Shown: positions 1,784 to 27,611 of the stretch, piece after piece | How positions within the stretch are numbered: position 1 is the first letter of the stretch | Layout of the letters: each line of letters starts with the position of its first letter | NCBI GenBank assembly: GCA_040899905.1 | Contig: JBBDZX010000005.1 | Coordinates: forward strand, 698,199 to 762,198 | Direction: 5' to 3' | DNA length: 64,000 nt | Origin: Anaerolineales bacterium | GTDB taxonomy: Bacteria > Chloroflexota > Anaerolineae > Anaerolineales > E44-bin32 | Made by a program: the position numbers and the translations under genes | The notes under the pieces: generated by a model | What the model saw: only the letters and a program-made list of their open reading frames with translations | What the model was told of the DNA's origin: nothing | The model's database searches: none

Positions 1784-2707
1784 TCACATCCGAAACGGAG
1801 AGGTGGGCGCTGACAGTACGCCGATCGACCAGTCCGGCAAAACGGACCCGCAGCCGCAACCCATCCTGACAACTTGCGAGCCGATAGGCCCGGCTCCGCC
1901 GGTGACAATCTCCCATCGGTAGCTGACTGAGCTTGGGATCCCTAGTGTCGCGACCGCTCCAACATAGCCGGCTGCAGGAACGAAGGACTCGGACCACCAG
2001 GCGGGGAAATCAAGCCCATCGCTCCTCAGGAATGGCGACCCTGATCGGTTTCGCCAGAATCCCGTTGTCTCAACCTCTTGAAACGGCATGGCCATCCCTA
2101 CGCCCATCGCCTTTACGAACGCTTCCTTCTTCGACCAGACACTGTGAAGCCAGGATGATCTCTCCCCTGCACTGAGCCGGTCGAACTCCGCCCACTCGCG
2201 ACCGGTGAGGATGCGGCGTGCAACCGCATCCATATCAATGTCCGACCGCGCCTCTTCGACGTCAACGCCAACCATCTCGAGCCTTGTGACGGCGATCACA
2301 CAGATAGTACCAGAATGGCCTAGGTTGAACTGAAGCCGGGAGGGCCCACCCCCATCTGCCAGCCTGGGCTTTCCACCTGGTTCAAGGGAGAACGCGAGCT
2401 CGTTGGCTGGCCGTTCCGCATACCGTGCCAGAATGATCCGCAATAGTCCCCGGCTTACCAGGAACTGATTGCGCCGCTCTTCGAAACGGAGCAGGTTAGC
2501 CCGCTCCAATTCTTCAGCGCTGAGAGTTCCTTTCAATCCCTCAACGGCTGTTCGAGGGAGGTTTGTGCGCGATATCCACACATGGACCTCGCCCGCGTCC
2601 AATGCTGGTGCGGCCGTCGCGTTCACCCGGAGGGTGCGAAGCACATTCTCCTTCCCTTTCAGCATGCCGACCTGTCCATGATTTGGATTGCGGTTTGACA
2701 CCTTCAT
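1784..2707 (-). CDS. Sfp-type 4'-phosphopantetheinyl transferase
   Basis: Internal start MKVSNRN of ORF 1784..3043; its ATG (2707..2705) overlaps the GT4 stop TGA (2706..2704) as ATGA. Motifs FNLGHSG and WSKKEAFVKA (W-x-x-KEA-x-x-K), with a typical tail GYVGAVA. About 40 extra C-terminal residues look non-native. Confidence 0.85.
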   Translation of the reverse strand: MKVSNRNPNHGQVGMLKGKENVLRTLRVNATAAPALDAGEVHVWISRTNLPRTAVEGLKGTLSAEELERANLLRFEERRNQFLVSRGLLRIILARYAERPANELAFSLEPGGKPRLADGGGPSRLQFNLGHSGTICVIAVTRLEMVGVDVEEARSDIDMDAVARRILTGREWAEFDRLSAGERSSWLHSVWSKKEAFVKAMGVGMAMPFQEVETTGFWRNRSGSPFLRSDGLDFPAWWSESFVPAAGYVGAVATLGIPSSVSYRWEIVTGGAGPIGSQVVRMGCGCGSVLPDWSIGVLSAPTSPFRM

Positions 2708-3990
2708 ATACCGGCGGGCAGGTGACGAACAAGGGCTGCGACAGGGGGTCTCGTATGACCAGCTGCTTGATTGAGGGCCACAGTTAGGTGTTCCATCATG
2801 TGGCTGATCGTAAACCGTTCTTCGACGCCTCTCCGACCGGCTGAAGCCAATCTCTGGGACAATCTTGGGCGCCTGCGGGCGGCCTCCAGCGTCTCCGCCA
2901 ATTCGACTGAATCCCCAACGCCCGCCAGCAACCCAGTTCGACCATGGATAACGATCTCTGGCAGCCCTCCGATGCGGCTCGCAACCACTAGACGTCCCGA
3001 TGCCATCGCTTCCAAGGCAGTTCTCGGAAAGGGCTCCTCCCAAAGCGATGGAATCACTACCACGCCATGTTGATGCATGAGGCCGGGAATTTCCTGCGCA
3101 GGCCGTTCGCCCAGGTACGTGACGACGCTGGCCAACTCGAGCCGATCCACCAGCCCAGTCACCTGGGAAATGTAGTCTGGGACACCCCCACCCACGATTG
3201 TGAGCCTCCAGGGACGATCCGGGGCGTTTCTTGCCAGCCTCTCCACCGCCCGCAGCAGGACGAACAGACCTTTTTCCGGTGAGATGCGGCCGACGTACAA
3301 GATGCGGCCTAGGAGATGAGGAGCCAGATCGACTTGGCTTCTGGATCTACTGAACCTCCCCAAGTCGATGCCGTTGTGAATCACGGTGGCGTGGGAAACT
3401 GGAATCCCATCCTCCAGCAACCTAGCTCGGACGCCATGGCTGACACAGTAGGCGTGGGGATACCCGAGCTCGATCTCTTCGGATGCCTCCAGAATCTTGA
3501 TCGCCAGGGGCGCCAGGGCACGGCGCGCGATTCGGGTGGCGAGGGTTCGTCCTTGAGCCCTCCAGTACTGGATATGCTGCGATGAGAGTGTCGGCCAATA
3601 ATCTGCGAACCTGTAGAGCACCCGCCCCTGCATAAGCTGCTCGCCGTCAGCCGCCAACTGCCTGGGGAGATTCCACATCCCCCAGATGAAGAGCACCTCG
3701 GGATCGAATGCCGCGATTGACTGACGGAGTGCCTGCCTGCTCTCGGCCAGGTCGGCTTGACGGTGCAGGAGCATCCGCCAGGCATTGCGTATCGGCGCCA
3801 ACTCCATCTCCAGGTTCAGCACCCTGGAGACGTTTCCATCGACAGTCGCCTCTCGAGCGCCGTGTTTGCCGGTGAGGATCCTGACCGTATGCCCCTGATC
3901 CGTAAGGGCCTTCACGGTCTCCAGGCAGCTCAGCTCCATCCCTCCCAATGAGTAGGGAGGGTAGAAGTTGGTTAGTACGAGAATGCGCAA
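2704..3990 (-). CDS. GT4-family (GT-B fold) glycosyltransferase
   Basis: N-terminus (M)RILVLTNFYPPYSLGGME. C-terminal E-x7-E region EPFPRTALEAMASGRLVVASRIGGLPEIV. Start chosen at TTG 3990..3988, 5 nt after GGAGA; the longest ORF would start at 4032. Confidence 0.9.
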   Translation of the reverse strand: MRILVLTNFYPPYSLGGMELSCLETVKALTDQGHTVRILTGKHGAREATVDGNVSRVLNLEMELAPIRNAWRMLLHRQADLAESRQALRQSIAAFDPEVLFIWGMWNLPRQLAADGEQLMQGRVLYRFADYWPTLSSQHIQYWRAQGRTLATRIARRALAPLAIKILEASEEIELGYPHAYCVSHGVRARLLEDGIPVSHATVIHNGIDLGRFSRSRSQVDLAPHLLGRILYVGRISPEKGLFVLLRAVERLARNAPDRPWRLTIVGGGVPDYISQVTGLVDRLELASVVTYLGERPAQEIPGLMHQHGVVVIPSLWEEPFPRTALEAMASGRLVVASRIGGLPEIVIHGRTGLLAGVGDSVELAETLEAARRRPRLSQRLASAGRRGVEERFTISHMMEHLTVALNQAAGHTRPPVAALVRHLPAGI

Positions 3991-4146
3991 TCTGTCTCCG
4001 TGGGTTTTGCTACTCCTGTTGGGGAGAAACAATCGGCTGCTAGGACTGCATACTTTGGCGGGTCTGACGAGTGGGGGTCCTGCGGCTTCGGACCGTAAGG
4101 ATGGGACTCGTTCAAGTAACGCTTCAGTCGCTAGAGGGAACGGAGT

Positions 4147-4878
4147 TCAAAGGTACTTGCGCCGCACGATAAGATAGCTTGCCGGAAAGCGCACAGGCCC
4201 ATCGCCAGCATCCTCGGCTGTAATGATCGAGCCTCTGCCTTGCTCCAGGATCAACCACTGCTCATCCGGGAAGTGGCGCTTTTGATCGGCCAACTCAAAG
4301 GCATTCAGCCTCACGTTCTCTGGCATTCGCCATGCTTGAAGTCTAGGTACTTCCTGGAAACACCGGGCCGCGGCCCAGCGTAACTCGATCTGGTAGAGCG
4401 TTCCGGTCTTGCCTAGCAGTACTCCTAGACTGGAGACATACTGATGGCGCATGTGGGGCCGGATTACATGGAAGACGCCCCGCACATAGACATTCAGGTC
4501 CCCGAGTTCATCATGCAGCGATTGGATAGCCCCGGAGTCCATTACGTCCACAACGCGAAAGTGTATGCCTGTGCCATCCGGTGAGATTGATCGCGCGAGC
4601 TTCACTGCCGAGGGCGACTTATCGATACCGATGACTGATTCCCAGTGACGCGCCAGTCCAATGGTCTGTCTTCCGGCACCGCACCCAAGGTCGAGCAGAG
4701 GAAGAGCCGGATCGAAATACGGCATGAATCGCGCGATATCCTCCTCTATGGCTCTCGCGGGGTCAGCGTCCCAGAGCGTGCTGTGGCCCTGGTCGGAAGC
4801 CAATACCTCCCCCCAGAAGTCTTCCCAGCCGTCGATCATTCGTGCCTGATTCCTGGAAGTAGATTCATGCCTTCTCAT
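4147..4878 (-). CDS. Class I SAM-dependent methyltransferase
   Basis: SAM motif I LLDLGCGAGRQT followed by VIGIDKS. Internal ATG 4878 (MRRHESTS) chosen; the N-terminal 117 codons of ORF 4147..5229 look non-coding. ATG 4839 is an alternative. Confidence 0.8.
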   Translation of the reverse strand: MRRHESTSRNQARMIDGWEDFWGEVLASDQGHSTLWDADPARAIEEDIARFMPYFDPALPLLDLGCGAGRQTIGLARHWESVIGIDKSPSAVKLARSISPDGTGIHFRVVDVMDSGAIQSLHDELGDLNVYVRGVFHVIRPHMRHQYVSSLGVLLGKTGTLYQIELRWAAARCFQEVPRLQAWRMPENVRLNAFELADQKRHFPDEQWLILEQGRGSIITAEDAGDGPVRFPASYLIVRRKYL

Positions 4879-5240
4879 CACCCTCGGTGATCCGCATCCC
4901 GATTTGCTACTCGATCCCGCGCTAGCAGCTGGCCTACCAACTGAACGCTCGTTCCGGGTCTGAGTGTAGATCGCTTCTAGACGGTCGACGGAGTGCTCCC
5001 AAGAGTGTGGCCGCCGCTCGTGCGGAGGTTGGCAGCCTCCACCACACGTCTGGCTTTCTTGGAAAGAAGGTCGATTCCATGCCAGATCTGGAAGCCCCCA
5101 ACGAAGATGACGATTGGCCCTCCGTCCAGCGCTAGTTTCGGATACAGGAAGGCTCCAGACTGCCCCAAACCGCCGGTACACCTGCGCTTTCAAAGTAGGG
5201 AGGCCTTTGCCTACGGTACCCCGAACCAATCATCACTCAG

Positions 5241-6320
5241 CTAACCAAAGGCGAATCGATAATATCTTCGCACGGGCAGTCGCTTCCACATCCACATCAA
5301 GATCAGTGGGCCCCCGAGACCCGCCAGGATCAATACCGCCAGGTAAACTAGCTGTGAGCCGAGGACCGCAGGTGTAAAGCGGTACATGATCACGGCTATG
5401 GAATAGGCGAAGGGAATATTCGCCAGATAGATTCCGAGTGAGTTTGCCCCGAGATAGGCCAGGTGCTTGGACATCGGAACCCGAGTCGCTGCGAATCCCA
5501 AGAAGCAAGGGGCAACGAGGGTGGCGTAGGTAATCCTGGCTATGCCCGGGTTATTCGGCCCCAGCCACTCCTGACCACTCCACCGCACAAGCAGCTCGTA
5601 TTCCACCAGGCTTAACGACAGCGTCGCGATGACTGCCCCCAGCAACCACCACCTCCTCCGCTGAATCCATTGCGAGGCTGCCTCGACATTCAGCCCTGCC
5701 ACGAGCCCCAGGCTGAAGTGCAGGATGCTCCCTGCGAAGATCCACCGCACGTTGTACTGGAAGATGAAACTCCAAATCGGGCCCTCCGCACCCATGAGAT
5801 AGAAGAACATGATGCTTTCGAAGCTGAGTTGAATGACCGCGGCACCCGCCAGGAAGAGCAAGGGTCTTGACTCCGCAATCCGGGCCAGTATCGGCGCCAA
5901 CAAGTACAGCTGCACAAGCACAACGAGATAGTAATAAGGATCCAGGATATCGTCGATCGATGAAGGGATTTTCCTCAAGAGGATATACCGAATCATGGTC
6001 CACAGAAGGAAGGGTACGAGAAGGACCTTGATCCGAGGCAGGACACTGTTCCAGGTAACACCCCCCGACTCACGCCGCGCCAGAAACGCAATGAAGAAGC
6101 CCGATACAAACAGAAATGCCGGTACCCCGAACGCGTCAAACTGGCGTGCGAGCATTAGGACATAGTACGCCAAACTTCCCAGTTGGTCGAAGTTGGGGAC
6201 GGCGACGTCCCGGTAGCGGTTCGTCCACTCGAACATTGCCTGCAGACCATACGCAGTTGCGTGATGAACCGGGACCATAAGCACTGCGAGTCCATTGAGA
6301 AGAAGAAGCCGTCGGGTCAT
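5241..6320 (-). CDS. Acyltransferase family 3 (OafA/YrhL-like) integral membrane O-acyltransferase
   Basis: About 10 predicted TM segments. N-terminal LNGLAVLMVPVHH-type motif typical of acyltransferase-3 proteins. ATG start. Confidence 0.75.
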   Translation of the reverse strand: MTRRLLLLNGLAVLMVPVHHATAYGLQAMFEWTNRYRDVAVPNFDQLGSLAYYVLMLARQFDAFGVPAFLFVSGFFIAFLARRESGGVTWNSVLPRIKVLLVPFLLWTMIRYILLRKIPSSIDDILDPYYYLVVLVQLYLLAPILARIAESRPLLFLAGAAVIQLSFESIMFFYLMGAEGPIWSFIFQYNVRWIFAGSILHFSLGLVAGLNVEAASQWIQRRRWWLLGAVIATLSLSLVEYELLVRWSGQEWLGPNNPGIARITYATLVAPCFLGFAATRVPMSKHLAYLGANSLGIYLANIPFAYSIAVIMYRFTPAVLGSQLVYLAVLILAGLGGPLILMWMWKRLPVRRYYRFAFG

Positions 6321-6438
6321 TCCACGATCCCCATGCCGGACGTGCCATACGTTGGAACAGGTACACGTTCAGAGGAGTCGGCCAGGGGTGTGGCCGACCG
6401 GCGCCCACCCTGCCTCGTCCCGGAAGGTATTCTGCAGG

Positions 6439-7836
6439 TCAACCTGGAGCTCGCCGTCCGATGTTCGCCGGGAAGATCGCTGCCTGCTCATCTGGAGTCA
6501 GTTCACAGGACGGCGCATTGAATTCCGGGCGGCGGATAACCGTGCTGCGGAGCATTTGGAAGTACCGCGGATTTGCCAGCAGATCCAGAAACCTATGGTA
6601 CTTCCTGTGATTCTCAAAGAAGTCCCCTGACAGGATGAAGTGCCCGGCTGCCATTGCATCCTCGTGTTCCTTGTACTCACCGAAGAACGGGAGCGCCTCC
6701 GCGAACGACACAGAGTGGGGGTTGTAGAACAGCGATATCAGGCGATACACGAAGCCGTAGGCTCCATTGATCTGCTCATAGGCTCTCGCGAGCGAACCAT
6801 TCTGATCCAGACTCCCGTTCGAGATCATTTCGACCAGGGCATCCGCTACCAGCCACGCACTCTTCATCGACAAGAAGATCCCACTCGAAAAGATCGGATC
6901 GATGAATCGGCTCGCGTCGCCAATCAGGGCGAACCGGGGGCCATACTTGACGCTGGACTCGTAGGAGTAATCCCCTTCTACGAAGACCTCCATCGCGATC
7001 TCCGCTCCCGCCAGGATCTCCGACACGGCCGGTGACTCGCCAATTTCGTCGCGATACACCGCTAGCTTCCAATCGCCCTTCCCATTGCCGGCCAGCTCGC
7101 GTTTCCGCTCCCGAAGGTAGCTGCTTTCCACCACGACACCAACCGTCACCTTTTCCGCCGAGAGGGGAAACACCCAAATCCAGCCCCGCTTCTCTCCACC
7201 CAGGTAGAAGATCAGCGAAGCACCCTGCTCAAGGCCAAAGGTCATCCTCTGAACTCCGGTCCAATGCGTCCACAAGGCGGTGCGCTCAAACCCGCGATTG
7301 GTCGTTCTCCACTTGTTCCTTACAGCCATGAACGTATCTCTTCCGCTGGCATCGATCAGAAACCGAGCCCTGATGACGCGCTCGCCCCCGCGAGGTCCGA
7401 CCGTTAATACCCGAACCTCGCCCGCTGATGTCTCAAAGTCAACATCCTTGACTCGAGTTCTCTCCCGAACTTCGGCCCCGCGGTTCCGGGCGTTTTCCAG
7501 TAGGAGCGTGTCGAACTGTTTGCGATCGACCTGGAAGGACAAGAAGGTCTCATCTTCGATGACATGGTTGAAGCACCAACTGGTCGCGCGCTGCCCGTCC
7601 CGGGTGGCGAATCGAACGGCAGGCTTGCGCACGAACGTCCGCTTCATCTCGTCAAGTACTCCCAGCTCATTGAGTATTCCGTAGCAGAATGGGAGAAGCG
7701 ATTCTCCGACATGCTCCCGGGGGAACTTCTCCTTTTCGAGAACTACCACCTTAAGCCCATTCTTCGCCAGGATGGAGGCAGCCGTCGTGCCCGCAGGTCC
7801 GCCGCCGATGATGGCCACATCCACGCTGCCTGTCAT
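6439..7836 (-). CDS. FAD-dependent halogenase-like oxidoreductase (paralog 1)
   Basis: VDVAIIGGGPAGTTAA (GxGxxG), FPREHVGESLLP, GWIWVFPL (WxWxIP variant with F for I), candidate Lys in FVRKPAVRF, and GDASRFIDPIFSSG. Start at ATG 7836 preceded by GGGAGA; the longest ORF starts at GTG 7860. Confidence 0.75.
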   Translation of the reverse strand: MTGSVDVAIIGGGPAGTTAASILAKNGLKVVVLEKEKFPREHVGESLLPFCYGILNELGVLDEMKRTFVRKPAVRFATRDGQRATSWCFNHVIEDETFLSFQVDRKQFDTLLLENARNRGAEVRERTRVKDVDFETSAGEVRVLTVGPRGGERVIRARFLIDASGRDTFMAVRNKWRTTNRGFERTALWTHWTGVQRMTFGLEQGASLIFYLGGEKRGWIWVFPLSAEKVTVGVVVESSYLRERKRELAGNGKGDWKLAVYRDEIGESPAVSEILAGAEIAMEVFVEGDYSYESSVKYGPRFALIGDASRFIDPIFSSGIFLSMKSAWLVADALVEMISNGSLDQNGSLARAYEQINGAYGFVYRLISLFYNPHSVSFAEALPFFGEYKEHEDAMAAGHFILSGDFFENHRKYHRFLDLLANPRYFQMLRSTVIRRPEFNAPSCELTPDEQAAIFPANIGRRAPG

Positions 7837-8032
7837 GTCCGTCTCCCTATCATGCGCCACCTCTTCGGCGACTCGCCGTTCGCCTGACCACTCCGACCAC
7901 AGGTACCATGCACGCGTACACCCTCATTGACCAACCCAACGTGCGGGCAAAGATCCATGACCCAGAGACTGCTCATCGCTGCGTACGAGGGCTCGTCTGT
8001 CAAACTCGGTAGCGAAGCGCCTCGGTAGGGGG

Positions 8033-8284
8033 TTAACTCTTGCTCTGCTTACGCTGTACGAGGGAACTCATTGCATTGATGGTCTCAAAATTCTCCGGCA
8101 CCACCTCGGTATCGTCGACCACCACCGAGAACTTCTCCTCGATGAACGCAACGAGACGCAGAATGCCGAGGGAATCGACAATCCCGCTTGCGATGAGGGA
8201 GTCTTCCCATGAGAGGGAAACATCCCCATCGGCCACCATAATATTCTGAACTATGAACTCTTCCAGAGCTTGGGATACATCCAT
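8033..8284 (-). CDS. DltC-like acyl/peptidyl carrier protein (carrier 1)
   Basis: About 83 aa. Phosphopantetheine site ASGIVDSLGILRLVAFIEEKF (D-S-L). AGGAGG lies 7 nt before the second ATG (8284). Confidence 0.8.
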   Translation of the reverse strand: MDVSQALEEFIVQNIMVADGDVSLSWEDSLIASGIVDSLGILRLVAFIEEKFSVVVDDTEVVPENFETINAMSSLVQRKQSKS

Positions 8285-8417
8285 TTCCATGCCTCCTGAT
8301 TTATGTTATACTAGGACGCACGCTCATTTGCGCGGCGGCTTTCGGTTTGTCCCGAGCGCCAACACGGGCCAAACCTGGACCAACCGATCAAGTGCAGTGC
8401 GGAGGGAGGGTAAGCGG

Positions 8418-9206
8418 TTGTTTCGTAATCAGCGCACGATCTTGATGCTGGCGATTGGGCTGATTCTCACGGTCTCGGTTGTTATCGCAGCCGCTTCAAC
8501 CGGCGCCCAACTGGCACCAGAGGGATCGGCAATGACCGATGAGCCCAACTCCACCGATTTGCCGCACTCCTCCGCCACAGTGCCATTCCCGTCTTCTGCG
8601 ACGTCTGAGGTCAATCCCGGCTCGACGGCGACGGCGGTCTCGAGCCCGACCGAGGACAAAGTGGCCAGCCCAAATCCCACCGTCACGTCAACTTCGGTAC
8701 CCGCAACCTCCGTGCCTCCGACCGGAAACCTGTTGGCAAACCCGTACTTCGAAGGAGATCATAGCTCCACGGTAATCCCCGGATGGGTGAACGACGGTCA
8801 GTGGGATATCTCCGTCAAACCTCACAACCCCAGTCCGAACGATACCTCGGCGCGCATTAACGGCCCAGAGCAGGCTGGCGAGTATCAGCAGGGTGAAACC
8901 GCGGTCATCTATCAGATCGTCGAGGGCGGAGGGTCGAACCTGGCAGCGTCAATCGCCTGTGTCCAGCATCAAGCCGAAGTCATGCAGGTCACGATCTTTG
9001 GATCGCAATCTCCCGACGGACCTTGGACATCCGTCTGGCAACCCTTCGACCTCTCTGCTTGCGGATTCGCCGATTGGGGGCCAACTGTCCACGCCCAGAC
9101 GCAGTTGCCGCAGGCGTGGGCCTACTATCAGTTTCAGATTGTCGGCCGGTATGTGGATTGGAGGGGAGGGGTTAAGGTCACGGATGTATCCTTGAGCCTC
9201 CAGTAG
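8418..9206 (+). CDS. Membrane-anchored/secreted protein with S/T/P-rich linker and C-terminal jelly-roll (carbohydrate-binding-module-like) domain
   Basis: TTG 8418 lies 7 nt after GGAGGGAGGG. N-terminal TM ILMLAIGLILTVSVVIAAAS, a long S/T/P low-complexity linker, then NLLANPYFEGD...IPGW resembling CBM4/9-type modules. It is the only plus-strand gene inside the minus-strand cluster. Confidence 0.6.
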   Translation: MFRNQRTILMLAIGLILTVSVVIAAASTGAQLAPEGSAMTDEPNSTDLPHSSATVPFPSSATSEVNPGSTATAVSSPTEDKVASPNPTVTSTSVPATSVPPTGNLLANPYFEGDHSSTVIPGWVNDGQWDISVKPHNPSPNDTSARINGPEQAGEYQQGETAVIYQIVEGGGSNLAASIACVQHQAEVMQVTIFGSQSPDGPWTSVWQPFDLSACGFADWGPTVHAQTQLPQAWAYYQFQIVGRYVDWRGGVKVTDVSLSLQ

Positions 9207-9232
9207 GTTCTACCGTCATACGGTCCAGAACC
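9206..9232 (+). terminator. Imperfect hairpin directly after the 8418..9206 stop
   Basis: GGTTCTACCGT-CAT-ACGGT(CC)AGAACC, followed by only a weak T stretch (CTCGTTTCC). Confidence 0.3.
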
Positions 9233-9596
9233 ACTCGTTTCCACTCACATTGCGAACACTGAATAGACTGACAAACGAAATTGAGAGGATCGGCTAGGCG
9301 GAGACACCCCCTCCGGAACCCGACAAGCGACCTACCAGGTTGAGTCGGGGGTGCCTCTCGCACGAGGGCCGGTGGACGTTCTGCTTGATGGAGTGCGTTC
9401 ACTCGCCCCGCATCCATGCTTCCGTCAGCTCGACGGCCGCGTCGTCGGCGTCGGTGCTCGTCCCGGATGTAGCCTGAGCCGATCGGAACGGAGTCGTCGC
9501 CCTCCTCCTGCTGCCCCGTTCGCCCTTTGGCATCTTCCTAACGCGCGCACTCCTTCCACGGGCCGATCGTCGTAGATCCCCTGAGGCGGTACGTGT

Positions 9597-12625: not shown

Positions 12626-12642
12626 CGGCGTGCCTCTTGACC

Positions 12643-12849
12643 TCAGGCGCCCGCCCGCTCATGGGCGGCGGAGGACTTGCGGAGCGGTACAGTCATCCGG
12701 TTGGCCACCAGGGCAAAAACCATGATGATGGTGAAAGTCAGACCCGTCATGATGTTCATCGGCAGCCGGATCCATCCGACGCGCCCGAGCCCGGCGATGG
12801 TCTCCAACACGACTTTGTCCAACGGATCCCTATGCCACGGCACGAACAC
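12643..12849 (-). CDS. Possible small membrane protein (38-68 aa) between the dehydrogenase and adenylase 2
   Basis: Tail of ORF 12643..13401: ...DKVVLETIAGLGRVGWIRLPMNIMTGLTFTIIMVFALVANRMTVPLRKSS. It has one clear TM and high third-position GC. Candidate starts are GTG 12849 or ATG 12759. No family recognised. Confidence 0.3.
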   Translation of the reverse strand: MFVPWHRDPLDKVVLETIAGLGRVGWIRLPMNIMTGLTFTIIMVFALVANRMTVPLRKSSAAHERAGA

Positions 12850-12980
12850 TCCGTCGCGAATTGCGCCCCGCCCTTTCCCCCGTCTGCGGCGCGGAACCGA
12901 GGGGAATGATGTGCCAGGGGCCGGCGCCGGTCTGCGCGCTGGGCCTCGCGTCCATCTGGGAACGGTCACGACCTCCGGGT

Positions 12981-14126
12981 TCACAGGCCCAGCATCCGGG
13001 AGATGATCACCCGCTGAATGTCGGAGGTGCCCGAGTACAGGGTCCCACCGATGGCGTCGCGGACCTGTCGCTCGATTTCGAACTCGGTCATGTAGCCGTA
13101 GCCACCGTAGACCCGCAAGGCGTCCAGGCTGGACTGAAGGAAGGATTCGCTCAGATACAGCTTCGCCATAGCAGCTTCGACGACCGCGGACTTCCCGTTC
13201 TGTTTGAGCCACGCCACCTTGTACAGCAGCAGCCGAGCGGTCTCCAAGCGAACCTTCATGTCGGCGATCCGGTTGGACACGGACTGGAATTTGCCGATGG
13301 GCTGGCCGAACTGGCGCCGCTCGCGGGCATAGCGAATGCAGCCCTCCAACTGTCGTTCCATGGCGCCGATGTTGCCAGCCAGGATGCAGCTGCGCTCCCA
13401 CTCCATCGAGCTGTTAAACACCGTCAAGCCGGCGCCCTCGGCGCCCAATCTCGCTGAATCCGGGACGAAGCAGTCCCGCAGGATGATCTCGCTCATCGGC
13501 GAGGTCCGCAGCCCCATCTTGGAGATGTCGTTGCTGACGGAGAAGCCCTGGGCCTCCCGATCGACGAGGAAGGCGGTGATCCCGCCCCGTCCCAGCTCGG
13601 GGTCGAGTGTTGCAAATACAACGGCCAGATGGCAGATCGGTGCGTTGGTCGAGAAGGTCTTTACGCCGGAGAGAACATACCCGCCGTCGACCTTCTTCGC
13701 CCGCGCCCGCAGACTGGCCGTGTCGGATCCCGCGTCGGGCTCCGTCATCCCATGCGCCCCGATCAGGTCCCCGCGGCACAGCCCGGGCAGGTATCGTTCC
13801 TTCTGCTCCTCGGTCCCAAAGGTCTCAATCGGGTGCTGCACGCTCCACATCTGAGCATTGATGGCGAACACAAGCCCGAGGTCGGTACATCCGTAGCCCA
13901 GCCCTTCCATCACCAGCATCGTGGTGAGGATGTCTTCTCCGGCGCCGCCGAAGTCCGGAGACACGGGAAGCCCCAGAATCCCGAACTCGGCGCACTTGCG
14001 CCAGTTGTCCAGCGATAGTTCTCCGCGTCGATCCCGATCGATGACTTCGTCGTTGAGGTTGTCTTTGGCGAAGTCCACGACGGCCCGCTTGTAGGCATCT
14101 TGTTCCGGGCTCCAGGAGAAGTCCAT
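12981..14126 (-). CDS. Acyl-CoA dehydrogenase family flavoprotein (possibly acting on a carrier-bound substrate)
   Basis: MDFSWSPEQD start with GAGG 7 nt upstream. Typical ACAD blocks GAHGMTEPDAGSD and QFGQPIGKFQ. The C-terminal block reads LYSGTSDIQ instead of the usual YEGT. Confidence 0.9.
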   Translation of the reverse strand: MDFSWSPEQDAYKRAVVDFAKDNLNDEVIDRDRRGELSLDNWRKCAEFGILGLPVSPDFGGAGEDILTTMLVMEGLGYGCTDLGLVFAINAQMWSVQHPIETFGTEEQKERYLPGLCRGDLIGAHGMTEPDAGSDTASLRARAKKVDGGYVLSGVKTFSTNAPICHLAVVFATLDPELGRGGITAFLVDREAQGFSVSNDISKMGLRTSPMSEIILRDCFVPDSARLGAEGAGLTVFNSSMEWERSCILAGNIGAMERQLEGCIRYARERRQFGQPIGKFQSVSNRIADMKVRLETARLLLYKVAWLKQNGKSAVVEAAMAKLYLSESFLQSSLDALRVYGGYGYMTEFEIERQVRDAIGGTLYSGTSDIQRVIISRMLGL

Positions 14127-14443
14127 CACCGCACCTCGAGGCGCTTCCACCACCGGCACCCGCTCATCGGGGCGTCCGGGTTGTCCAGCAAAGAGACCGG
14201 TCTTCTCATCTGGCCATCTGGTGGCGGCCGCTCGCCGCCGCAGCGTTCAGATCCGGACGGGTGAACCCCGCAGGACCGCGGCGCCCGGCGTTCACAAGGG
14301 GCGTATCTGCGGCGGGCGCCGGCCCAGTTTCGGGAAGATCCGCAGCACAAGCCCCGCCGGTCCCTGCAGCACCCCAAACCCCAAGAGCAACGAGGAGGAT
14401 TCTGCCCAGGGCAGGGCTTTCGTCCGTGCGGCGCTCGGGACGG

Positions 14444-17389
14444 TTAGCTCGTTGGTTCCTCGCTCGGTCCGAAGAGAGGAATCACGTCCTGCCGTTCGTG
14501 CAAGGCCTGATACAACCTCTCCGCGAGCAGCCGGTGTCCGGCCGCGTTCGGATGCTTATCCCAGTAGGCCACAACCAGCGACTCTACGTCCTGATGATCG
14601 AAGGCGTCGGATAGATCCAGAACAAGGAAACCCGATTCCTCGGCCAGGCGGGCGAGGTGCGTCACGGTCTCTTCCCGCAGCGGATTCTCCAAAGTCGGTA
14701 CGAAGATCCAAATGGGGAGAACACCATTTGCGCGTGAGGTTTCCACGACACGGCGATAGGTCCACGCGAGGATTTCGCTCCCTATTGGCTGGAGGTGTCT
14801 TTCGTTCTCCACCATGGTGGCGCCGGCCTCTCCTCCGGCCTGGTGGGCGAGTTCCATCAAGTCGGCGTAGGGGAGCTCCGCCCCCACGGATATCCGGTCT
14901 GCCAGATACCTCGCGGTGTCCGATTCCTCACGCTGATGGGCGATGAAGAAGAGGGCATCGGGTTGAAAGGAGACCCCCTTTTGTTCCAGGACCATCAGAT
15001 TCTGGATCGCAGAGTAGCCTGGAACGGCGAAGTTCAGGATTTCGTATCTGGCATAGCCACTCCCGCCATTCTCACGATTCAGGCGGTCCTCCAACAGCGA
15101 CTCGAAAACTTCGTCATTGGCGACGCCCGACCCCATCACAAAGGAGGGGCCGGTCAGGGCGACGCGGTAGGTGTCCGCTTGTGGGATCAGCTCGTAATCC
15201 CGATCCCGCATCCCCCAGCGGTTGGTGCTCAACAAGGCTCCCTGGAAGTTGATCGTCGTCGAGGGGACGAGCTCTACCATCAGGTTGTCGCCGGTTTGTC
15301 GCGCCACCTCCGTCTCCATGATGGACGGCCAGTCCGATGGCCGTTTCGTGTAAATCTCCCACAGCTGAGAGTTGAATCGATCTACCCCGACCAGGTCTTC
15401 GTAGTAGCCGCGCTGGAGCAGCACGGCCTCCCGCTCGCTCAGTCGGTTCACCGTCAGATCGCCAAGGAACGCCTGAACTGGGCCACCCAGGCGGCTCTGT
15501 ATTGCCGGATGGCCCAGCAGGAGCAGGAAGATGAGCGGTACCCCCGTGGCCGCAAAGGATCTCACCAGAGGGGCCTGCTTTCGCTTCGCCCCGAGGCCCA
15601 TTTCGCCTCGCGCGCTCGCCCAAATCGCCACCCCCATCACAGCCATGAGGGCCAAGAACGCGAACACCAGTACGGCGATGTCGCCAGGAGTGATCTGAAC
15701 GACGGACAACAAGGAAATCCAATCCTGAATCGAATCGCCGCCCCACAGCGCCCACAAAACCGCCATGATTGTGAAGGTGCTTGCCGTCCGGATCGCCAAC
15801 GCAACCGTTTCGCCAAGCGACCTGGCACGCCGGCCCAGGGCTCGATCTCGGCCGCGCCTGGCCTCATAGAGCATGTTGGCGATGATCAGCAGGGTCAGGA
15901 TCAGCCAGAACAAAACATCCTGGGCGGTCAGGAGAAACGAACCGCGGAGCCAGAACCATTGGTACGCATGCAAAAACCAGGTCAGAAAGAAGACGATCGC
16001 AGTTGCCAGGACCATGCTGGTAGTGGGGCCCCACTGCCGGATTCGAAAGTAGACGGGATAGTAAAACACCTTCAACATAAAGTCTTTCCAATAGATGTTG
16101 ATCCGGCGCCATATGTTAGTGAAGCTACTGGCCAGGAAATATAGGTGATGGGTTTCCGGCAGGTTGAAACCGAATAGGTGTAAGAGCCCAATGATCAAAT
16201 GAAACTGACCGGAAATACGAACATAGAGGCCAAAGTTCGCGACGAGATAGCGCACAAGCTCCGTCGCATTTGTGACTTCCTGGGGGCTGAGCATGACGTA
16301 GTAGTTGAGGTATCGATATAGAAGAAGATGGACGATCCCCCGGAACATCCACCGCAGCCCTTTTTGATAGATCGCATGCTGCTCGTCATCATAGTAGGTT
16401 CGTCGGAATGTGCCGTAGTCGACGATCGGGAAGAAAGGGAAGACGACGTTAGGCAACAGAAAGAAGTACGAAAGCGTGCTAGCCAGCGTCGGTTTCGCCT
16501 TTCCATGCCGGAGATCATACATATAGACGATCAGGCGAAACATGAACATCGAGGCCAGAATCGGCCAGATCACTCCCAGCCCGGATGCCTCGATCCAGCC
16601 GGCTCGTATGACCGCCAGCAGAACCCCAGCGGTAAGGAGGAGAAAAACTCGAAGCCCATAGGCCACCGGAAGATGAGCGAGGCCGACCAGGCCTAGCCCG
16701 ATCGCAAGCAGCCAAACAGAGTTGGCGAGCCCCAGGATCCCCACCAGCGCGGCCAGGGAAAGAAGCAGGAAGTAGGGAAGCCGATAGTGGGCAGGCAGCA
16801 GATAGTGAATCAGAAAGCCATACACTACCAGTGGAATGATATTGAGGTAGACAGCTTGAGTTTCCAGGTGGAATAGGCGGACGACTAGTCCTAGGAGGCT
16901 AAGCTGAAGCAGGATGCTCAGAAACGTGCCCACCTTCAGCCTGTCCAAGCTAACCTGCCCGAGCCAGGTCCGTACCTTCCGCCAATCCCACGGTTCCGCT
17001 GCAACGGCGCTGAGGGACAGCACGGTGACACAGGTCGAGGCCAGAACCGCAAGCTTCGCTGGCCATTCCGGCAGACCATTGATCACCAGCAAGTCGGCGG
17101 CGAATGCGGCTGCGAGAACCGCAACCCCAACCAGCAACCACTCGCCAATCGGGCGCAGGCCAACAGGCGAAACCAGGACGAGGCCTGCTCCCAGAATGGC
17201 GAACCCACTCAGCGCAACGGAGACCTGCTTCGGGCCTATGCCTGACTGCTCGCCAATCCTCAGCAAATCAGCAGCGAACGCCAACGCCATGACGGCGGCG
17301 CCGATCCCTACGAGACTGAAGGGTACAAGTCTCTCCCAGTTAATGATGGTTAGTCTGCGCAGCACCGATCGGCCCTTCTTCCCCGACAA
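14444..17389 (-). CDS. Fusion protein: N-terminal polytopic extension + MBOAT (DltB/AlgI-like) core + C-terminal extracytoplasmic SGNH (DltD/AlgJ-like) domain
   Basis: 981 aa. MBOAT blocks MFMFRLIVYMYDLRHG, GLLHLFGFNLPETHH, FTNIWRRINIYWKDFMLKVFYYPVYF and LTWFLHAYQW. The C-terminal domain has YRVALTGPSFVMGSG (Ser block) and YWDKHPNAAGHRLLAE (Asp/His block). Confidence 0.85.
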   Translation of the reverse strand: MSGKKGRSVLRRLTIINWERLVPFSLVGIGAAVMALAFAADLLRIGEQSGIGPKQVSVALSGFAILGAGLVLVSPVGLRPIGEWLLVGVAVLAAAFAADLLVINGLPEWPAKLAVLASTCVTVLSLSAVAAEPWDWRKVRTWLGQVSLDRLKVGTFLSILLQLSLLGLVVRLFHLETQAVYLNIIPLVVYGFLIHYLLPAHYRLPYFLLLSLAALVGILGLANSVWLLAIGLGLVGLAHLPVAYGLRVFLLLTAGVLLAVIRAGWIEASGLGVIWPILASMFMFRLIVYMYDLRHGKAKPTLASTLSYFFLLPNVVFPFFPIVDYGTFRRTYYDDEQHAIYQKGLRWMFRGIVHLLLYRYLNYYVMLSPQEVTNATELVRYLVANFGLYVRISGQFHLIIGLLHLFGFNLPETHHLYFLASSFTNIWRRINIYWKDFMLKVFYYPVYFRIRQWGPTTSMVLATAIVFFLTWFLHAYQWFWLRGSFLLTAQDVLFWLILTLLIIANMLYEARRGRDRALGRRARSLGETVALAIRTASTFTIMAVLWALWGGDSIQDWISLLSVVQITPGDIAVLVFAFLALMAVMGVAIWASARGEMGLGAKRKQAPLVRSFAATGVPLIFLLLLGHPAIQSRLGGPVQAFLGDLTVNRLSEREAVLLQRGYYEDLVGVDRFNSQLWEIYTKRPSDWPSIMETEVARQTGDNLMVELVPSTTINFQGALLSTNRWGMRDRDYELIPQADTYRVALTGPSFVMGSGVANDEVFESLLEDRLNRENGGSGYARYEILNFAVPGYSAIQNLMVLEQKGVSFQPDALFFIAHQREESDTARYLADRISVGAELPYADLMELAHQAGGEAGATMVENERHLQPIGSEILAWTYRRVVETSRANGVLPIWIFVPTLENPLREETVTHLARLAEESGFLVLDLSDAFDHQDVESLVVAYWDKHPNAAGHRLLAERLYQALHERQDVIPLFGPSEEPTS

Positions 17390-17453
17390 TTGCTCTGGTC
17401 AACTGGCGGCTGTGCAATTGCCCCTTCCGCCGGTCGCATTTGACCCAGTGGCG

Positions 17454-19016
17454 TCAATCCCGGAGCTCCATTAGTTTTTGGTAGTCGATCTTGTCCGTGG
17501 AAGTCTTCGGCAACGCCGGCTCGAAAACAAACAGGTCCGGGACCATGTAGATGGGTAAGTTCTCAGCACAGAAGCGCTTTAGCTCGATGATGGAGGGGCG
17601 CTTCTCTGGCTCCTTACAACTAATGTATGCCTTGACCCGCACCCCGTTCTCGTCGTCGGGCAATGCGATCACCGCCGCCTCTTTCACCGCCGAGTGGCGA
17701 TACAGTCCGGCCTCGATCTCGCCCAACTCAACTCGATACCCCCGCTTCTTGACCATCCGATCCCGCCGTCCGACGTAGAGGTAATCGCCATTCGCATCCT
17801 CGACCACGATATCGCCCGTCTTGTACCAAAGTTGACCCGACGAGTCTGTCAGAAAGGCAGTGGCGGTCCGTTCTGGCAGATTCCAGTAGCCCTGCATGAC
17901 CCCGGGACCGGCGATGCACAATTCGCCCTCCTGTCCGGCCGATACCGCTTGCCCCTGCTCGTTCACCACGATCGCCTGGCAGTGAGAGCACGCCTTCCCG
18001 ATAGGATAGGGCTGGGTTCGCTCTTCAGGGATGTGGCCCGGAATCTCATGGTAGGTGCAGACGTTGGTCTCGGTTGGGCCATACAGGTTGAAGAAACTTG
18101 GTCCAGGCAGGAGATTCGTGAGGGCCCGGAGATGCTTGACGGGAAACACCTCGCCTGCGAAGAGCACCCTTCGCAACGCGGCGTAATCGTGCTGTTGCAT
18201 TCTGCCGTACTGCGCCAGCATGCTCAAGACGGAGGGTGCCGAGTACCAGCTCGTGATTCGTCGCTCCGCGATGGTTGCGGCGAGGCCGATCGGATCCTTC
18301 GCAGTTTCGTCCGCGATTAGGACCAGGGCCGCGCCGTGCTTCATCGGTACGTATAGATCCAGAATGGACAGGTCGAAGTGGAAGGGTGCGTGCGAAGCGA
18401 AGCGCTCTCCGTCGGCCGGCTGGAACACCTCCGAGCACCAATCGACGAAGCTCAGCGCGTTGCGATGCGAGAGCATCACGCCTTTCGGCTTCCCGGTCGA
18501 CCCCGAGGTATACAGGACGTAGGCCAGATCGTCCGGTGACACCTCGGCCGAATCCGACACCGGCGCCGGATCGGTAGCCTGCAGTTCGTCGAGAGCTCGA
18601 CTCAACGGTACTCCGCCGCCAGTCGCCTCGACGACCAACAGCGACGCCGGCGCACCGAGGCTGGCAAGTTCCGTGTGCAGCCTGTCTTCAAAGCGGCTCT
18701 CCACCACCACGATCCGTACCTGGCAATCGTTCAGAATGTACGCGTTTCGGGCAGCCGGCGCGGCAGCATCCACCGGCACATACGCGGCACCGCACTTCAA
18801 AACGCCAAAGATCGCCGCAACCGCATCGATGGATTTGGGCAGATACAGCCCTACCCGGTCGCCTCGACTCACGCCAGCATGTTGAAGCCTGTCTCGCAGG
18901 CGATCCGAAAGGTGCGCAAGTTCGCGAAACGTGATCCGATGGCCCTCGCCGTCTTCGACGGCGAGTTGATCGGGACGGCCCTGCGCGGAGCGCTCCAGAA
19001 AGTGGTGGATGAGCAT
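17454..19016 (-). CDS. Stand-alone DltA-like amino acid adenylation enzyme (adenylase 1)
   Basis: A3 AYVLYTSGSTGKPKGV, A4 HFDLSILDLY, NLYGPTETNV, YKTGD, A8 GRRDRMVKKRGYRVELGEIE, LPIYMVP, A10 LPKTSTDKIDY. The ATG lies 9 nt after the carrier-2 stop. Confidence 0.9.
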   Translation of the reverse strand: MLIHHFLERSAQGRPDQLAVEDGEGHRITFRELAHLSDRLRDRLQHAGVSRGDRVGLYLPKSIDAVAAIFGVLKCGAAYVPVDAAAPAARNAYILNDCQVRIVVVESRFEDRLHTELASLGAPASLLVVEATGGGVPLSRALDELQATDPAPVSDSAEVSPDDLAYVLYTSGSTGKPKGVMLSHRNALSFVDWCSEVFQPADGERFASHAPFHFDLSILDLYVPMKHGAALVLIADETAKDPIGLAATIAERRITSWYSAPSVLSMLAQYGRMQQHDYAALRRVLFAGEVFPVKHLRALTNLLPGPSFFNLYGPTETNVCTYHEIPGHIPEERTQPYPIGKACSHCQAIVVNEQGQAVSAGQEGELCIAGPGVMQGYWNLPERTATAFLTDSSGQLWYKTGDIVVEDANGDYLYVGRRDRMVKKRGYRVELGEIEAGLYRHSAVKEAAVIALPDDENGVRVKAYISCKEPEKRPSIIELKRFCAENLPIYMVPDLFVFEPALPKTSTDKIDYQKLMELRD

Positions 19017-19025
19017 CGTCGCGGG

Positions 19026-19301
19026 TTACAGCTTCGACTGGACCAGCTGTTCCATGTCGGAAATGGTGTTGAAGTAATCGACCGTTGTCTCGTGCGCTTC
19101 AATACCGATTTGAAATCGCTTTTCGAGAAACAGCACCAAGTTGACCGTGGCGAGTGAGTCGAGGATCCCCCCGGTGATGAGGGGAGTTGTGTCGGTCAAT
19201 GCTGACGGGTCTTCCCCCGCAAGGAACTCGTCAAGGATGTACTTCTTGATCGCCTGCCCGATCCCCTCCCTCGTCTGCTTTTCTCCATCCACCTCGCTCA
19301 C
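19026..19301 (-). CDS. DltC-like carrier protein (carrier 2)
   Basis: 91 aa, with ITGGILDSLATVNLVLFLEKRF (D-S-L). GTG start preceded by GGAGAGGAGG. Confidence 0.85.
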   Translation of the reverse strand: MSEVDGEKQTREGIGQAIKKYILDEFLAGEDPSALTDTTPLITGGILDSLATVNLVLFLEKRFQIGIEAHETTVDYFNTISDMEQLVQSKL

Positions 19302-20953: not shown

Positions 20954-20955
20954 GA

Positions 20956-21969: not shown

Positions 21970-22428
21970 GCTAGACCCTTCTCAGTTGGAGAGAAACCGG
22001 CGCGTAGGGATCCACGTGCTCAGACGATGGAGCCCAGATCTCGAGCCCTTCGCTCCGTCCGCAGGCAGACAACGAGCATCATTCCACTGGTGGCGAGGGT
22101 CGCCAATCCGGCCTGGCAGAAGCCATGGCATGGGGCAGGCTGCTATCGCCGACGGCATGATCGAAGGGCCGCAGAGGAACGACAGAGAGCCGGCCTGCGT
22201 AGAGAGAGTGCCGCAACTCTTGATAGGGCAACCACCCGGTCCGCCGCATGTTGGCGGGTATGTCAATCTCGCCCAAGTGGAACGCACGCCCGCTGACCCG
22301 AACGTCGAACCTCGGTCCCCTCGATCGTCTGGTTTCACCTTCTCCTCCAGCGGTCACAAGATCTTCATTGGGGGCTCGGGCGCGAGCGAATGGGCCCAGG
22401 CGTGCTTGCCTGGGCTACCGACTCGACT

Positions 22429-23667: not shown

Positions 23668-23674
23668 CGTCTGG

Positions 23675-23832: not shown

Positions 23833-24018
23833 CACCCGCCGCACGCACCTCGCCTTGCCCAATGGCCACGCATCCGGTCATCAAGCCACCCCTGGTCGCC
23901 TCCAGGGAAGGGGCCCGCTTTGCGTCGGTCGCGGACGCCCTAACGGCAAAGCAGGATCACGCTGGCAGCCAGGATCGCCAGGTGCGCGACCCACACCGAG
24001 GGCAGGCGCGGATTGGCT

Positions 24019-27583: not shown

Positions 27584-27611
27584 TTCGAACCACTCCCAGA
27601 TGGACCAGCCA

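Follow-up and report, generated by a model that had tools for sequence, protein, structure and literature searches.

The window analysed here is a stretch of 64,000 nucleotides from an Anaerolineales bacterium (Chloroflexota; assembly GCA_040899905.1, contig JBBDZX010000005.1, positions 698,199 to 762,198 of the forward strand). Its G+C content is ~62%, and its closest relatives are Anaerolineales and other Chloroflexota metagenome-assembled genomes. Between positions 19301 and 1784 it carries a set of minus-strand genes that, in a reading we hold with moderate confidence from their sequences, would encode a carrier-dependent pathway that attaches a heterocyclic acyl group, derived from proline, to an extracytoplasmic glycan. 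A small carrier protein, a proline adenylase, a prolyl-carrier dehydrogenase and a fusion of an MBOAT acyltransferase with an SGNH domain form an old, widespread core cassette. The halogenases, a second adenylase and carrier pair, an acyltransferase-3 (AT3) family protein and a methyltransferase are additions found in Chloroflexota, and halogenation is lineage-specific. The genes are listed from the highest coordinate downwards, with lengths in amino acids (aa).

19026-19301, minus strand: carrier C2, 91 aa, with GILDSL (PP-binding family); carrier of the core cassette.
17454-19016, minus strand: adenylase A2, 520 aa, stand-alone and of the L-proline type (AMP-binding, 321 bits); core cassette.
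14444-17389, minus strand: MBOAT and SGNH fusion, 981 aa (hhalign 98.6%; Lipase_GDSL_2, 32 bits).
12981-14159, minus strand: putative prolyl-S-carrier dehydrogenase of the acyl-CoA dehydrogenase (ACAD) fold, probable start M12 at 14126 (PigA model, 429 bits).
10973-12625, minus strand: adenylase A1, 550 aa, the second stand-alone L-proline adenylase (code DLLYLALVCK); halogenation sub-module.
9597-10976, minus strand: Hal2, a Bmp2-like flavin-dependent halogenase (Bmp2 5bva, 246 bits), with an ATGA overlap with A1.
8253-9206, plus strand: gene on the opposite strand, a 317-aa open reading frame (ORF) without a Pfam match; 58% identical orthologue in locus L001.
8033-8290, minus strand: carrier C1, 85 aa, with GIVDSL (PP-binding, 24 bits); halogenation sub-module.
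6439-7860, minus strand: Hal1, a flavin-dependent halogenase of the PltA/CndH/Mpy16 type (Trp_halogenase, 94 bits).
5241-6320, minus strand: AT3 family membrane acyltransferase with 10 predicted transmembrane (TM) helices and no fused SGNH domain (Acyl_transf_3, 77 bits).
4147-5229, minus strand: class I S-adenosylmethionine (SAM) methyltransferase, domain at residues 159-285 (Methyltransf_25/31/11; weak TPMT match).
2704-4032, minus strand: glycosyltransferase of family GT4 (Glyco_trans_1_4, 107 bits; Glycos_transf_1, 106 bits).
1784-2707, minus strand, within ORF 1784-3043: phosphopantetheinyl transferase (PPTase) of the Sfp/HetI type (ACPS, 55 bits; AASDHPPT_N, 31 bits; HetI model, 130 bits).

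Gene identities are from Pfam and NCBIfam scans of the ORFs of the window. An initial annotation, made from the letters of the sequence, had named these minus-strand genes; each was located at its position on that strand. The motifs it quoted (HFDLS, GRRDxMVKxRGYRxELGEIE, PKTSxxK, WxWx[FI]P and FIDPIFSxG) are all present in the translations. Searches of the proteins against Pfam, NCBIfam and the PDB bore out its inventory, save for the MBOAT half of the fusion, which was recognized by profile-profile comparison only. Related loci (L001 and so on) are the best 80 of 223 matching loci in GTDB species genomes, based on our own ORF calling and BLAST thresholds.

The two adenylases point to proline. 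A1 and A2 were aligned to a fragment of GrsA-PheA, validated by its own return of the canonical code DAWTIAAICK, and DLLYLALVCK was read as the specificity code of both. For stand-alone enzymes that adenylate L-proline (CloN4, CouN4, RedM, PltF, AnaC and Leu5) an inner code L(L/F)YLALVC has been described that sets them apart from modular proline domains (PMC3874040), and the inner code of A1 and A2 matches this consensus exactly. The best single-domain match of both in the PDB is PltF (6o6e; 325 bits for A1 and 337 for A2), compared with 185-205 bits for DltA structures with A1 and 191-236 bits with A2. The DltA models of NCBIfam remained under their cutoffs (TIGR01734, 278 and 308 bits, cutoff 560; PRK04813, 285 and 311 bits, cutoff 476). 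The initial annotation had called both enzymes DltA-like, but the motifs quoted in support are generic to adenylation domains, and of the codes with which it proposed comparison it is that of PltF, not that of DltA, that was found. These results support the assignment of A1 and A2 as PltF/AnaC-type adenylases, predicted to load proline onto the carriers. The two are only 43% identical and so belong to separate lineages for which one and the same substrate is predicted. The exact code DLLYLALVCK is present in 43 cassette adenylases from many phyla, and DLFYLALVCK in five of the A1 type; among the loci surveyed, A1-type orthologues with the latter code occur only in Chloroflexota (L001, L012, L013, L015 and L016).

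The carriers, which bear phosphopantetheine sites of the DSL type and are 32% identical to each other, had likewise been described as DltC-like. This did not hold: the DltC models gave 22-29 bits with C1 and C2, against cutoffs of 52-68 (C2, 29 bits against 68), and carriers of proline pathways score at least as well as DltC. C1 matches a type II peptidyl carrier protein (PCP; 2my5, 47 bits), Bmp1-CP (32 bits), PigG (28 bits), PltL (26 bits) and DltC (22 bits) in the PDB, and the best match of C2 is PltL (30 bits, with DltC at 28). The best NCBIfam match of C2 is ACP_for_OlsHI (107 bits, cutoff 130); a carrier of the OlsH/OlsI type was considered and set aside, as the paper on these proteins describes an unrelated GH3-like lipid pathway and offers no insight here.

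The ACAD-fold protein is matched best in NCBIfam by the models of PigA (429 bits) and of the L-prolyl-PCP dehydrogenase RedW (389 bits), both short of the equivalog cutoffs (500 and 650), and the next family is acryloyl-CoA reductase at 302 bits. In the PDB its closest relative is the prolyl-acyl carrier protein dehydrogenase AnaB (4irn, 452 bits), followed by the PigA-type enzyme 5zw0 (321 bits), Bmp3 (314 bits) and generic ACADs (266 bits or less). Identity to AnaB is 51% and to 5zw0 42.5%, calculated with reference sequences transcribed from gap-free PDB alignments. Of 50 cassette ACADs, 48 are slightly nearer to AnaB than to PigA, the proteobacterial medians being 45% and 42%. The cassette ACADs of Mesorhizobium, Accumulibacter, Methylomonas and Calditrichaceae give 440-460 bits with the PigA model and 300-336 bits with the next family. 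The comparisons support the assignment as a prolyl-S-carrier dehydrogenase homologue of the AnaB/PigA type. The dehydrogenases of the Pig, Red, Plt and Bmp pathways oxidise on to the pyrrole. Since the protein is nearer to the cyanobacterial AnaB than to the solved enzymes of pyrrole pathways, the AnaC/AnaD/AnaB starter module of anatoxin may share recent ancestry with the widespread envelope cassette.

Both halogenase-like proteins are closest to enzymes that act on carrier-bound substrates. Hal2 aligns over residues 4-396 with the pyrrolyl-S-carrier brominase Bmp2 (5bva, 246 bits) and gives 141 bits with the CmlS model. Hal1 matches ChlB4 (171 bits), CndH (171 bits), Mpy16 (164 bits), CmlS (164 bits) and PltA (155 bits) in the PDB. 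The top PDB matches of both are all halogenases, and geranylgeranyl reductases and monooxygenases/hydroxylases reach 46 bits at most. Hal1 contains GGGPAG, K79 in FVRKPA, WIWVFP at the WxWxIP site and FIDPIFSSG; Hal2 contains GGGPAG, K70 in HPCKQG (aligned with FPDKPG of Bmp2), WAWFIP and FIDPIFSFG; the two lysines lie in a motif of the form F/H-x-x-K-x-G/A, and the last of these sequences is an instance of FxDPxFSxG. The initial annotation would have been undermined had the two clustered with non-halogenating reductases or hydroxylases and lacked the catalytic lysine; their nearest relatives are instead carrier-dependent halogenases, and the lysine is kept in each (K79 and K70). Their assignment as carrier-dependent ('variant B') flavin-dependent halogenases with intact catalytic signatures is thus supported by their sequences.

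The set of A1, C1, halogenase, AT3 protein and methyltransferase recurs in L013 and in part in L001, L012, L014 and L016. The AT3 gene accompanies the halogenase sub-module in L013 and L014, and in L013 an orthologue of the methyltransferase adjoins the A1-type adenylase. L012 and L013 have two carriers and a single adenylase. A third type of halogenase, with WVWQIP and FPKKYG, is common in related Anaerolineales loci. The methyltransferase has a weak match to the TPMT family (E 6.6e-6), which includes halide and thiol methyltransferases.

The 981-aa protein comprises a divergent MBOAT part (residues ~150-640, with the dyad N431...H474) and a C-terminal SGNH domain (~740-975, with S749, N786, D944 and H946). 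The MBOAT part was unmatched in Pfam (E ≤ 10), in NCBIfam, by phmmer against the PDB, and by a 25-sequence cross-phylum profile against the PDB. For a more sensitive comparison the core motif of AlgI was used in a tblastn search of a plasmid collection, giving 184 records; those annotated among the matches listed are MBOAT or DltB, which validates the motif. Eight annotated plasmid MBOAT/DltB genes served as the reference alignment, which was compared by hhalign with the profile of the fusion family. The two matched with a probability of 98.6% and E 5.9e-16 over 275 columns. In this alignment 'DFAGYSxxAIG...GFxFPENFxxPY' of the MBOAT reference is paired with 'RVSGQFHLIVG...GFxLPETHxxY' of the fusion, 'FWRRWHISLS' with 'FWRRINIYWK', and 'GLWHGANW' with 'TWFLH474AYQW'. 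DltB homologues have two conserved histidines 47 residues apart, which we take to be H289 and the catalytic H336. H474 is aligned to the histidine of 'GxWHG' and is invariant in 20 + 25 family sequences, which, with the spacing of the DltB pair, indicates that the catalytic histidine is retained. At the first conserved site the fusion has asparagine (N431) where DltB has histidine; asparagine is also present there in many eukaryotic MBOATs. Replacement of the catalytic histidine by asparagine in 'WRRIN' was considered and ruled out, the lost histidine being that of the first site and the catalytic 'GxWHG' residue being H474.

The C-terminal domain scores 32.0 bits with Lipase_GDSL_2, just under the cutoff of 32.9, and S749 (in GPSF), N786 and D944-x-H946 are invariant in an alignment of 20 family sequences. 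From an alignment of 20 homologues an AlphaFold2 (AF2) model was calculated, of which the SGNH part alone was used (predicted local distance difference test score, pLDDT, 75-90). Foldseek matched this part to Axe2 and PatB (both E ~1e-4), OatA-C and, weakly, DltD (E 0.03); DltB appeared only at rank 44 (E 0.17). The acidic SGNH domain is predicted to be extracytoplasmic from hydropathy and the positive-inside rule, the loop of residues 504-528 (7 K/R) being placed inside, 548-570 (0 K/R) outside and 590-607 (4 K/R) inside. The proposed correspondence of the fusion to DltB plus DltD therefore holds at the level of superfamilies only, through the hhalign match and the SGNH fold. Fusions from Chloroflexota have an additional N-terminal extension, ~150 aa long, in which some four TM helices are predicted. 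It is absent from the homologues of Proteobacteria, Gemmatimonadota and Acidobacteriota, in which matches begin near residue 150.

The fusion family is large, with more than 2991 homologues in a 90%-clustered collection and at least 1090 representative clusters (E ≤ 1e-30) in a 50%-clustered library; nearly all of the 150 listed representatives of the latter keep the two-domain span. Database names are 'hypothetical', 'SGNH/GDSL hydrolase', 'DltB' and 'AlgI', and NCBIfam has no model for the fusion. The plasmid collection holds one homologous locus, unannotated, in Microvirga sp. VF16.

The company of the fusion gene is conserved across phyla. Co-occurrence was counted by ORF-level BLAST with the proteins of the window in the 38 loci that have at least 6 kb on both sides of the MBOAT-SGNH gene. 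A C2-like carrier adjoins it in 35 of these, an A-type adenylase in 32 and an ACAD in 33; adenylase and ACAD occur together in 31, and a halogenase in 11. The 80 loci with the fusion gene are from the Chloroflexota (Anaerolineales, Promineifilaceae and Ardenticatenaceae) and also from Gemmatimonadota, Acidobacteriota, Methylomirabilota, Planctomycetota, Calditrichota and Verrucomicrobiota. Many belong to Proteobacteria, including those of ~ten Mesorhizobium species, Methylomonas subterranea, Accumulibacter, Pelomicrobium, Woeseia and Nitrosospira. The well-flanked loci with the full cassette span Chloroflexota, Proteobacteria (among them several Mesorhizobium species), Gemmatimonadota, Acidobacteriota and others. 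Cultivated hosts include M. temperatum, M. amorphae, M. muleiense, Methylomonas subterranea and Pelomicrobium sp. G1. Lack of conservation of the neighbourhood elsewhere would have told against the module as first described; the survey found adenylase and ACAD with the MBOAT-SGNH gene in 31/38 loci, across phyla. The same survey alters one part of that description. A merger of genes for carrier chemistry with an MBOAT-SGNH gene is upheld as such, but it is not peculiar to this locus, the core cassette being widespread.

Proteobacterial cassettes run from MBOAT-SGNH through carrier and adenylase to ACAD. That of Mesorhizobium temperatum (L047), in which the ORFs of adenylase and ACAD have one base in common, lies in an exopolysaccharide cluster of the Wzx type, with Wzx, three GT4 enzymes, a pyruvyl transferase, a methyltransferase and a priming transferase. 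In Accumulibacter the four cassette genes stand alone in housekeeping surroundings, between gyrA/pheA and msrA, so that the MBOAT-SGNH protein is the sole possible consumer of the acyl-carrier there. In L074 (Calditrichaceae) the genes for MBOAT-SGNH, carrier, adenylase and ACAD, contiguous or overlapping, are followed by a Hal1-like gene (53% identity). This single-carrier set, halogenase included, is differently ordered in L002 and L033, and L002 has Wzm/Wzt adjacent. In L067 (4278-7406 and 7605-10505) and L075 (536-3355 and 5215-7806), from Chthoniobacterales and an unclassified bacterium, two paralogous MBOAT-SGNH genes lie side by side, a possible sign of two acceptors or of two acyl groups.

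Taken together the components can be arranged as follows. The Sfp-type PPTase would prime the two small carriers, and A1 and A2 would load them with proline. The AnaB/PigA-type flavoprotein would oxidise the prolyl-S-carrier, presumably to pyrrolyl-2-carboxyl-S-carrier, as the relatives of Hal1 and Hal2 act on pyrrolyl-S-carrier. Hal1 and Hal2 would then halogenate the acyl group while it is still tethered. It may next be passed to the MBOAT domain at the cytoplasmic face and through the membrane, where the fused external SGNH domain would attach it to a hydroxyl group of the glycan that the surrounding cluster produces, a route mirroring that from DltC to DltB to DltD, or from AlgI to AlgJ/X. 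Neither the window genes scanned nor the called genes of L001 and L002 include a thioesterase, ketosynthase or condensation domain, which leaves the MBOAT-SGNH protein as the only plausible off-loading route in the window. The conserved cassette contains no other off-loading enzyme, and activation and tailoring on a carrier followed by MBOAT/SGNH export is the simplest reading. The initial annotation had seen here a hybrid of Dlt and Plt logic, of which carrier tailoring and MBOAT/SGNH export are kept as proposals and the D-alanine half falls. More speculatively, the second adenylase and carrier pair, with the AT3 protein, the methyltransferase and the stand-alone SGNH proteins of the cluster, could provide a second, differently tailored pyrrolyl group; equally speculatively, the pair could serve a relay between carriers, as is reported from CloN5 to CloN1. 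A wider proposal is more tentative, and we put its chances somewhat below even: that bacteria of at least eight phyla, including Mesorhizobium and Methylomonas, esterify extracytoplasmic glycans with proline-derived pyrrole-2-carboxylate via MBOAT-SGNH proteins, to which Anaerolineae and other Chloroflexota add chlorine or bromine.

Several observations weigh against glycan decoration by a carrier-borne pyrrolyl group. Transfer from carrier to MBOAT is inferred from synteny and analogy with Dlt. The MBOAT half has diverged beyond the reach of profile searches in Pfam, NCBIfam and the PDB, and the membrane part of the AF2 model is unreliable (pLDDT <50). Adenylase and/or ACAD are absent nearby in 7 of the 38 well-flanked loci. 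The equivalog models all score below their curated cutoffs, and among the window genes scanned neither an exporter (Wzx or Wzm/Wzt) nor a flavin reductase turned up. The known donor of AT3 enzymes is acyl-CoA, which makes a role for one with a carrier protein speculative. Lastly, the dehydrogenase is somewhat nearer to AnaB (51%) than to PigA (42.5%). AnaB converts its substrate to (S)-pyrroline-5-carboxyl-AnaD, where oxidation stops (PMC3252866), so that formation of a pyrrole is not assured. The exported group might then be the two-electron product, (S)-pyrroline-5-carboxyl (dehydroprolyl), above all in cassettes that lack a halogenase. AnaB is the best solved relative (452 bits), nearly all cassette ACADs (48/50) lean slightly towards it, and AnaC belongs to the same group of stand-alone proline adenylases. 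Yet the module holds two halogenases whose nearest relatives, Bmp2, PltA and Mpy16, act on the aromatic pyrrolyl-S-carrier, PigA and RedW are the top NCBIfam models, and the proteobacterial difference in identity is small (median 45% against 42%); a pyrroline product seems unlikely to us.

The remaining alternatives concern the fate of the acyl group. The acceptor may not be a glycan, the carrier chemistry being as proposed and a membrane lipid, peptidoglycan, a teichoic-acid-like polymer or a secreted protein receiving the group. The MBOAT superfamily acylates lipids, proteins and polysaccharides, the SGNH relatives include the peptidoglycan O-acetyltransferases PatB and OatA, and the Accumulibacter cassette has no neighbouring glycan genes. 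The cassettes of the window, L001, L002 and M. temperatum, on the other hand, lie among glycosyltransferases and glycan-decorating enzymes, two of them with polysaccharide exporters, and another acceptor is distinctly unlikely. Production of a free halopyrrole, in the style of tetrabromopyrrole or a pyoluteorin precursor, beside an unrelated MBOAT-SGNH O-acetylation system using acetyl-CoA is highly unlikely. It would fit the fact that Hal1, Hal2, the ACAD and the adenylases have characterised relatives in secondary-metabolite pathways only, and to our knowledge acetyl is the group moved by every characterised bacterial MBOAT + SGNH pair except Dlt. But it is at odds with the lack of a thioesterase, ketosynthase or condensation domain for release or extension in the window genes scanned, with the linkage of carrier, adenylase and ACAD to the MBOAT-SGNH gene in 31/38 loci, often with overlapping gene ends, and with the four genes that stand alone in Accumulibacter. 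Ordinary Dlt-type D-alanylation, or another plain aminoacylation, is scarcely credible. Some homologues of the 981-aa protein are labelled DltB or AlgI by JGI, and there are sub-threshold matches to the DltA and DltC models. The code, however, is that of proline and not of DltA, the DltA models reach 278-311 bits against cutoffs of 476-560, and the conserved cassette contains a prolyl-carrier dehydrogenase, which Dlt operons do not have (one example operon examined). At the level of sequence tests D-alanylation of the Dlt type is refuted.

The genes discussed so far are part of something longer. The initial annotation had placed the limits of the unit at 1784 and 19301; Pfam scans extend the actual minus-strand glycan cluster from ~36132 down to 1784, nearly all of its genes lying on that strand. 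The further genes, with the response regulator that precedes the cluster, are:

36461-37354, minus strand: LuxR-type response regulator, preceding the NusG paralogue.
35482-36132, minus strand: NusG paralogue at the head of the ~34-kb minus-strand cluster.
Within 19514-36132, minus strand: hexapeptide acyltransferase and then a glycosyltransferase of family GT2, downstream of the NusG paralogue in transcription order (Pfam).
31687-33357, minus strand: radical SAM protein, 556 aa (Pfam).
Within 19514-36132, minus strand: Wzy_C/O-antigen-ligase-like protein with TPR, and then a type I phosphodiesterase (Pfam).
26501-27625, minus strand: stand-alone SGNH protein with one N-terminal TM anchor.
24250-26073, minus strand: carbamoyltransferase (Pfam).
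22429-23715, minus strand: stand-alone AlgX-like SGNH protein with one N-terminal TM anchor.
20956-21969, minus strand: sulfotransferase (Pfam).
19514-20962, minus strand: polytopic membrane protein with a weak PMT_2 match (E 0.019, under the gathering score).

The position of the NusG paralogue suggests dedicated antitermination control of a long operon. From the presence of the sulfotransferase, the carbamoyltransferase and the radical SAM protein, the glycan is predicted to bear several unusual decorations besides the pyrrolyl group. The cassettes of L001, L002, L011, L017 and L018 also have an orthologue of the carbamoyltransferase in their company (identity 68-78%).

Within the cluster the genes first listed were said to lie on one strand, several of them with 4-nt overlaps. 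Such overlaps are present as ATGA at the junction of A1 and Hal2 and at the GT4 stop codon with the probable PPTase start; this start is likely M113 at 2707, which creates the overlap. The true start of the methyltransferase is probably downstream of the start of ORF 4147-5229. All of the genes named are on the minus strand, but the run itself is interrupted by the conserved plus-strand gene at 8253-9206. The product of this gene combines a single hydrophobic segment with a long linker rich in Ser, Thr and Pro and a C-terminal domain that starts with 'NLLANPYFEGD', and matched no Pfam family. The 58% identical orthologue in L001 has the same relative position and the same orientation, opposite to that of the module, which indicates that the gene is real and moves with the module. 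In an otherwise tightly packed operon there are two unusually long gaps without an ORF that matches a family: 355 nt between ACAD and A1 (12626-12980), and 284 nt between MBOAT-SGNH and ACAD (14160-14443; ~317 nt with M12 as the ACAD start). An 83-aa ORF at 14126-14377 was tried as a third carrier and rejected as a gene, having an Arg/Cys/Gly-rich nonsense composition, no family match and no orthologue.

In comparison with known systems, the locus resembles DltABCD in that a stand-alone adenylase would load a carrier of ~80-90 aa, with an MBOAT protein having a catalytic histidine, an extracytoplasmic SGNH-like partner and a surface polymer as target. It differs in its L-proline code in place of D-alanine, in the predicted oxidation and halogenation of the acyl group on the carrier, and in the fusion of MBOAT and SGNH (~850-980 aa), with an MBOAT part beyond the reach of Pfam and asparagine at the first conserved histidine of DltB. 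Its adenylases and carriers miss the cutoffs of the Dlt models; with substrate specificity and both equivalog tests failing, the locus is not a member of the Dlt family. With the pathways of Plt (PltF/PltL/PltE/PltA), Bmp (Bmp4/Bmp1/Bmp3/Bmp2), Pig (PigI/PigG/PigA) and Red (RedM/RedO/RedW) it shares a proline adenylase, a type II carrier and an ACAD-type dehydrogenase. With Plt and Bmp it also shares carrier-dependent flavin halogenases, Hal2 being Bmp2-like and Hal1 PltA/Mpy16/CndH-like. Unlike these pathways it has no downstream polyketide synthase (PKS), nonribosomal peptide synthetase or thioesterase, the candidate for off-loading is an MBOAT-SGNH protein (or the AT3 protein) in a glycan cluster, and the cassette is widespread outside producers of secondary metabolites. 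The anatoxin-a module AnaC/AnaD/AnaB offers the closest solved dehydrogenase relative, AnaB, and an adenylase of the same stand-alone proline group, but AnaB goes no further than pyrroline-5-carboxyl and supplies a PKS, whereas the present locus lacks a PKS and has halogenases.

The nearest precedent for placing a carrier-bound pyrrolyl group on a sugar is reportedly found in clorobiocin and coumermycin A1 (CloN1-N7/CouN1-N7), where carrier-bound pyrrolyl-2-carboxyl is said to be esterified to a hydroxyl of noviose with the participation of two carrier proteins. Those enzymes are said to be cytoplasmic, with soluble acyltransferases acting on a small-molecule antibiotic and not a membrane MBOAT acting on a surface polymer. 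AlgI/AlgJ/AlgX and PatA/PatB share the combination of an MBOAT with an extracytoplasmic SGNH protein acting on a polysaccharide, the Foldseek match of the SGNH domain to PatB and the AlgX-like SGNH protein of the cluster being in keeping with this; they differ in transferring acetyl, without a dedicated adenylase, carrier or dehydrogenase. Full-text literature searches on MBOAT/SGNH proteins combined with pyrrole or adenylase-carrier genes, on pyrrole-2-carboxyl groups of polysaccharides and on halogenases in Anaerolineae found no description of the system. This agrees with the view taken at the outset that no described pathway is known to export a tailored acyl group through a Dlt-type conduit.

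The predicted modification of a surface polymer, by pyrrole-carboxyl esters that would be halogenated in Chloroflexota, thus has no report in the literature searched. If true, it would extend the principle of Dlt and AlgI from a plain amino acid or acetate donor to an aromatic, halogenated acyl group tailored on a carrier, and would link the chemistry of secondary metabolites to biogenesis of the cell envelope. Cell-surface polymers would then be covalently organohalogenated, and might constitute an unrecognised polymer-bound pool of organohalogens in sediments and sludge; halopyrroles held in polymers could play a part in the halogen cycle of the environment. Such groups would alter surface hydrophobicity, ultraviolet absorbance, and phage or host recognition. 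Because the core cassette is present in cultivable rhizobia and methanotrophs, the hypothesis is directly testable by genetics. It would give a functional context to thousands of proteins at present labelled 'hypothetical', 'SGNH hydrolase', 'DltB' or 'AlgI'.

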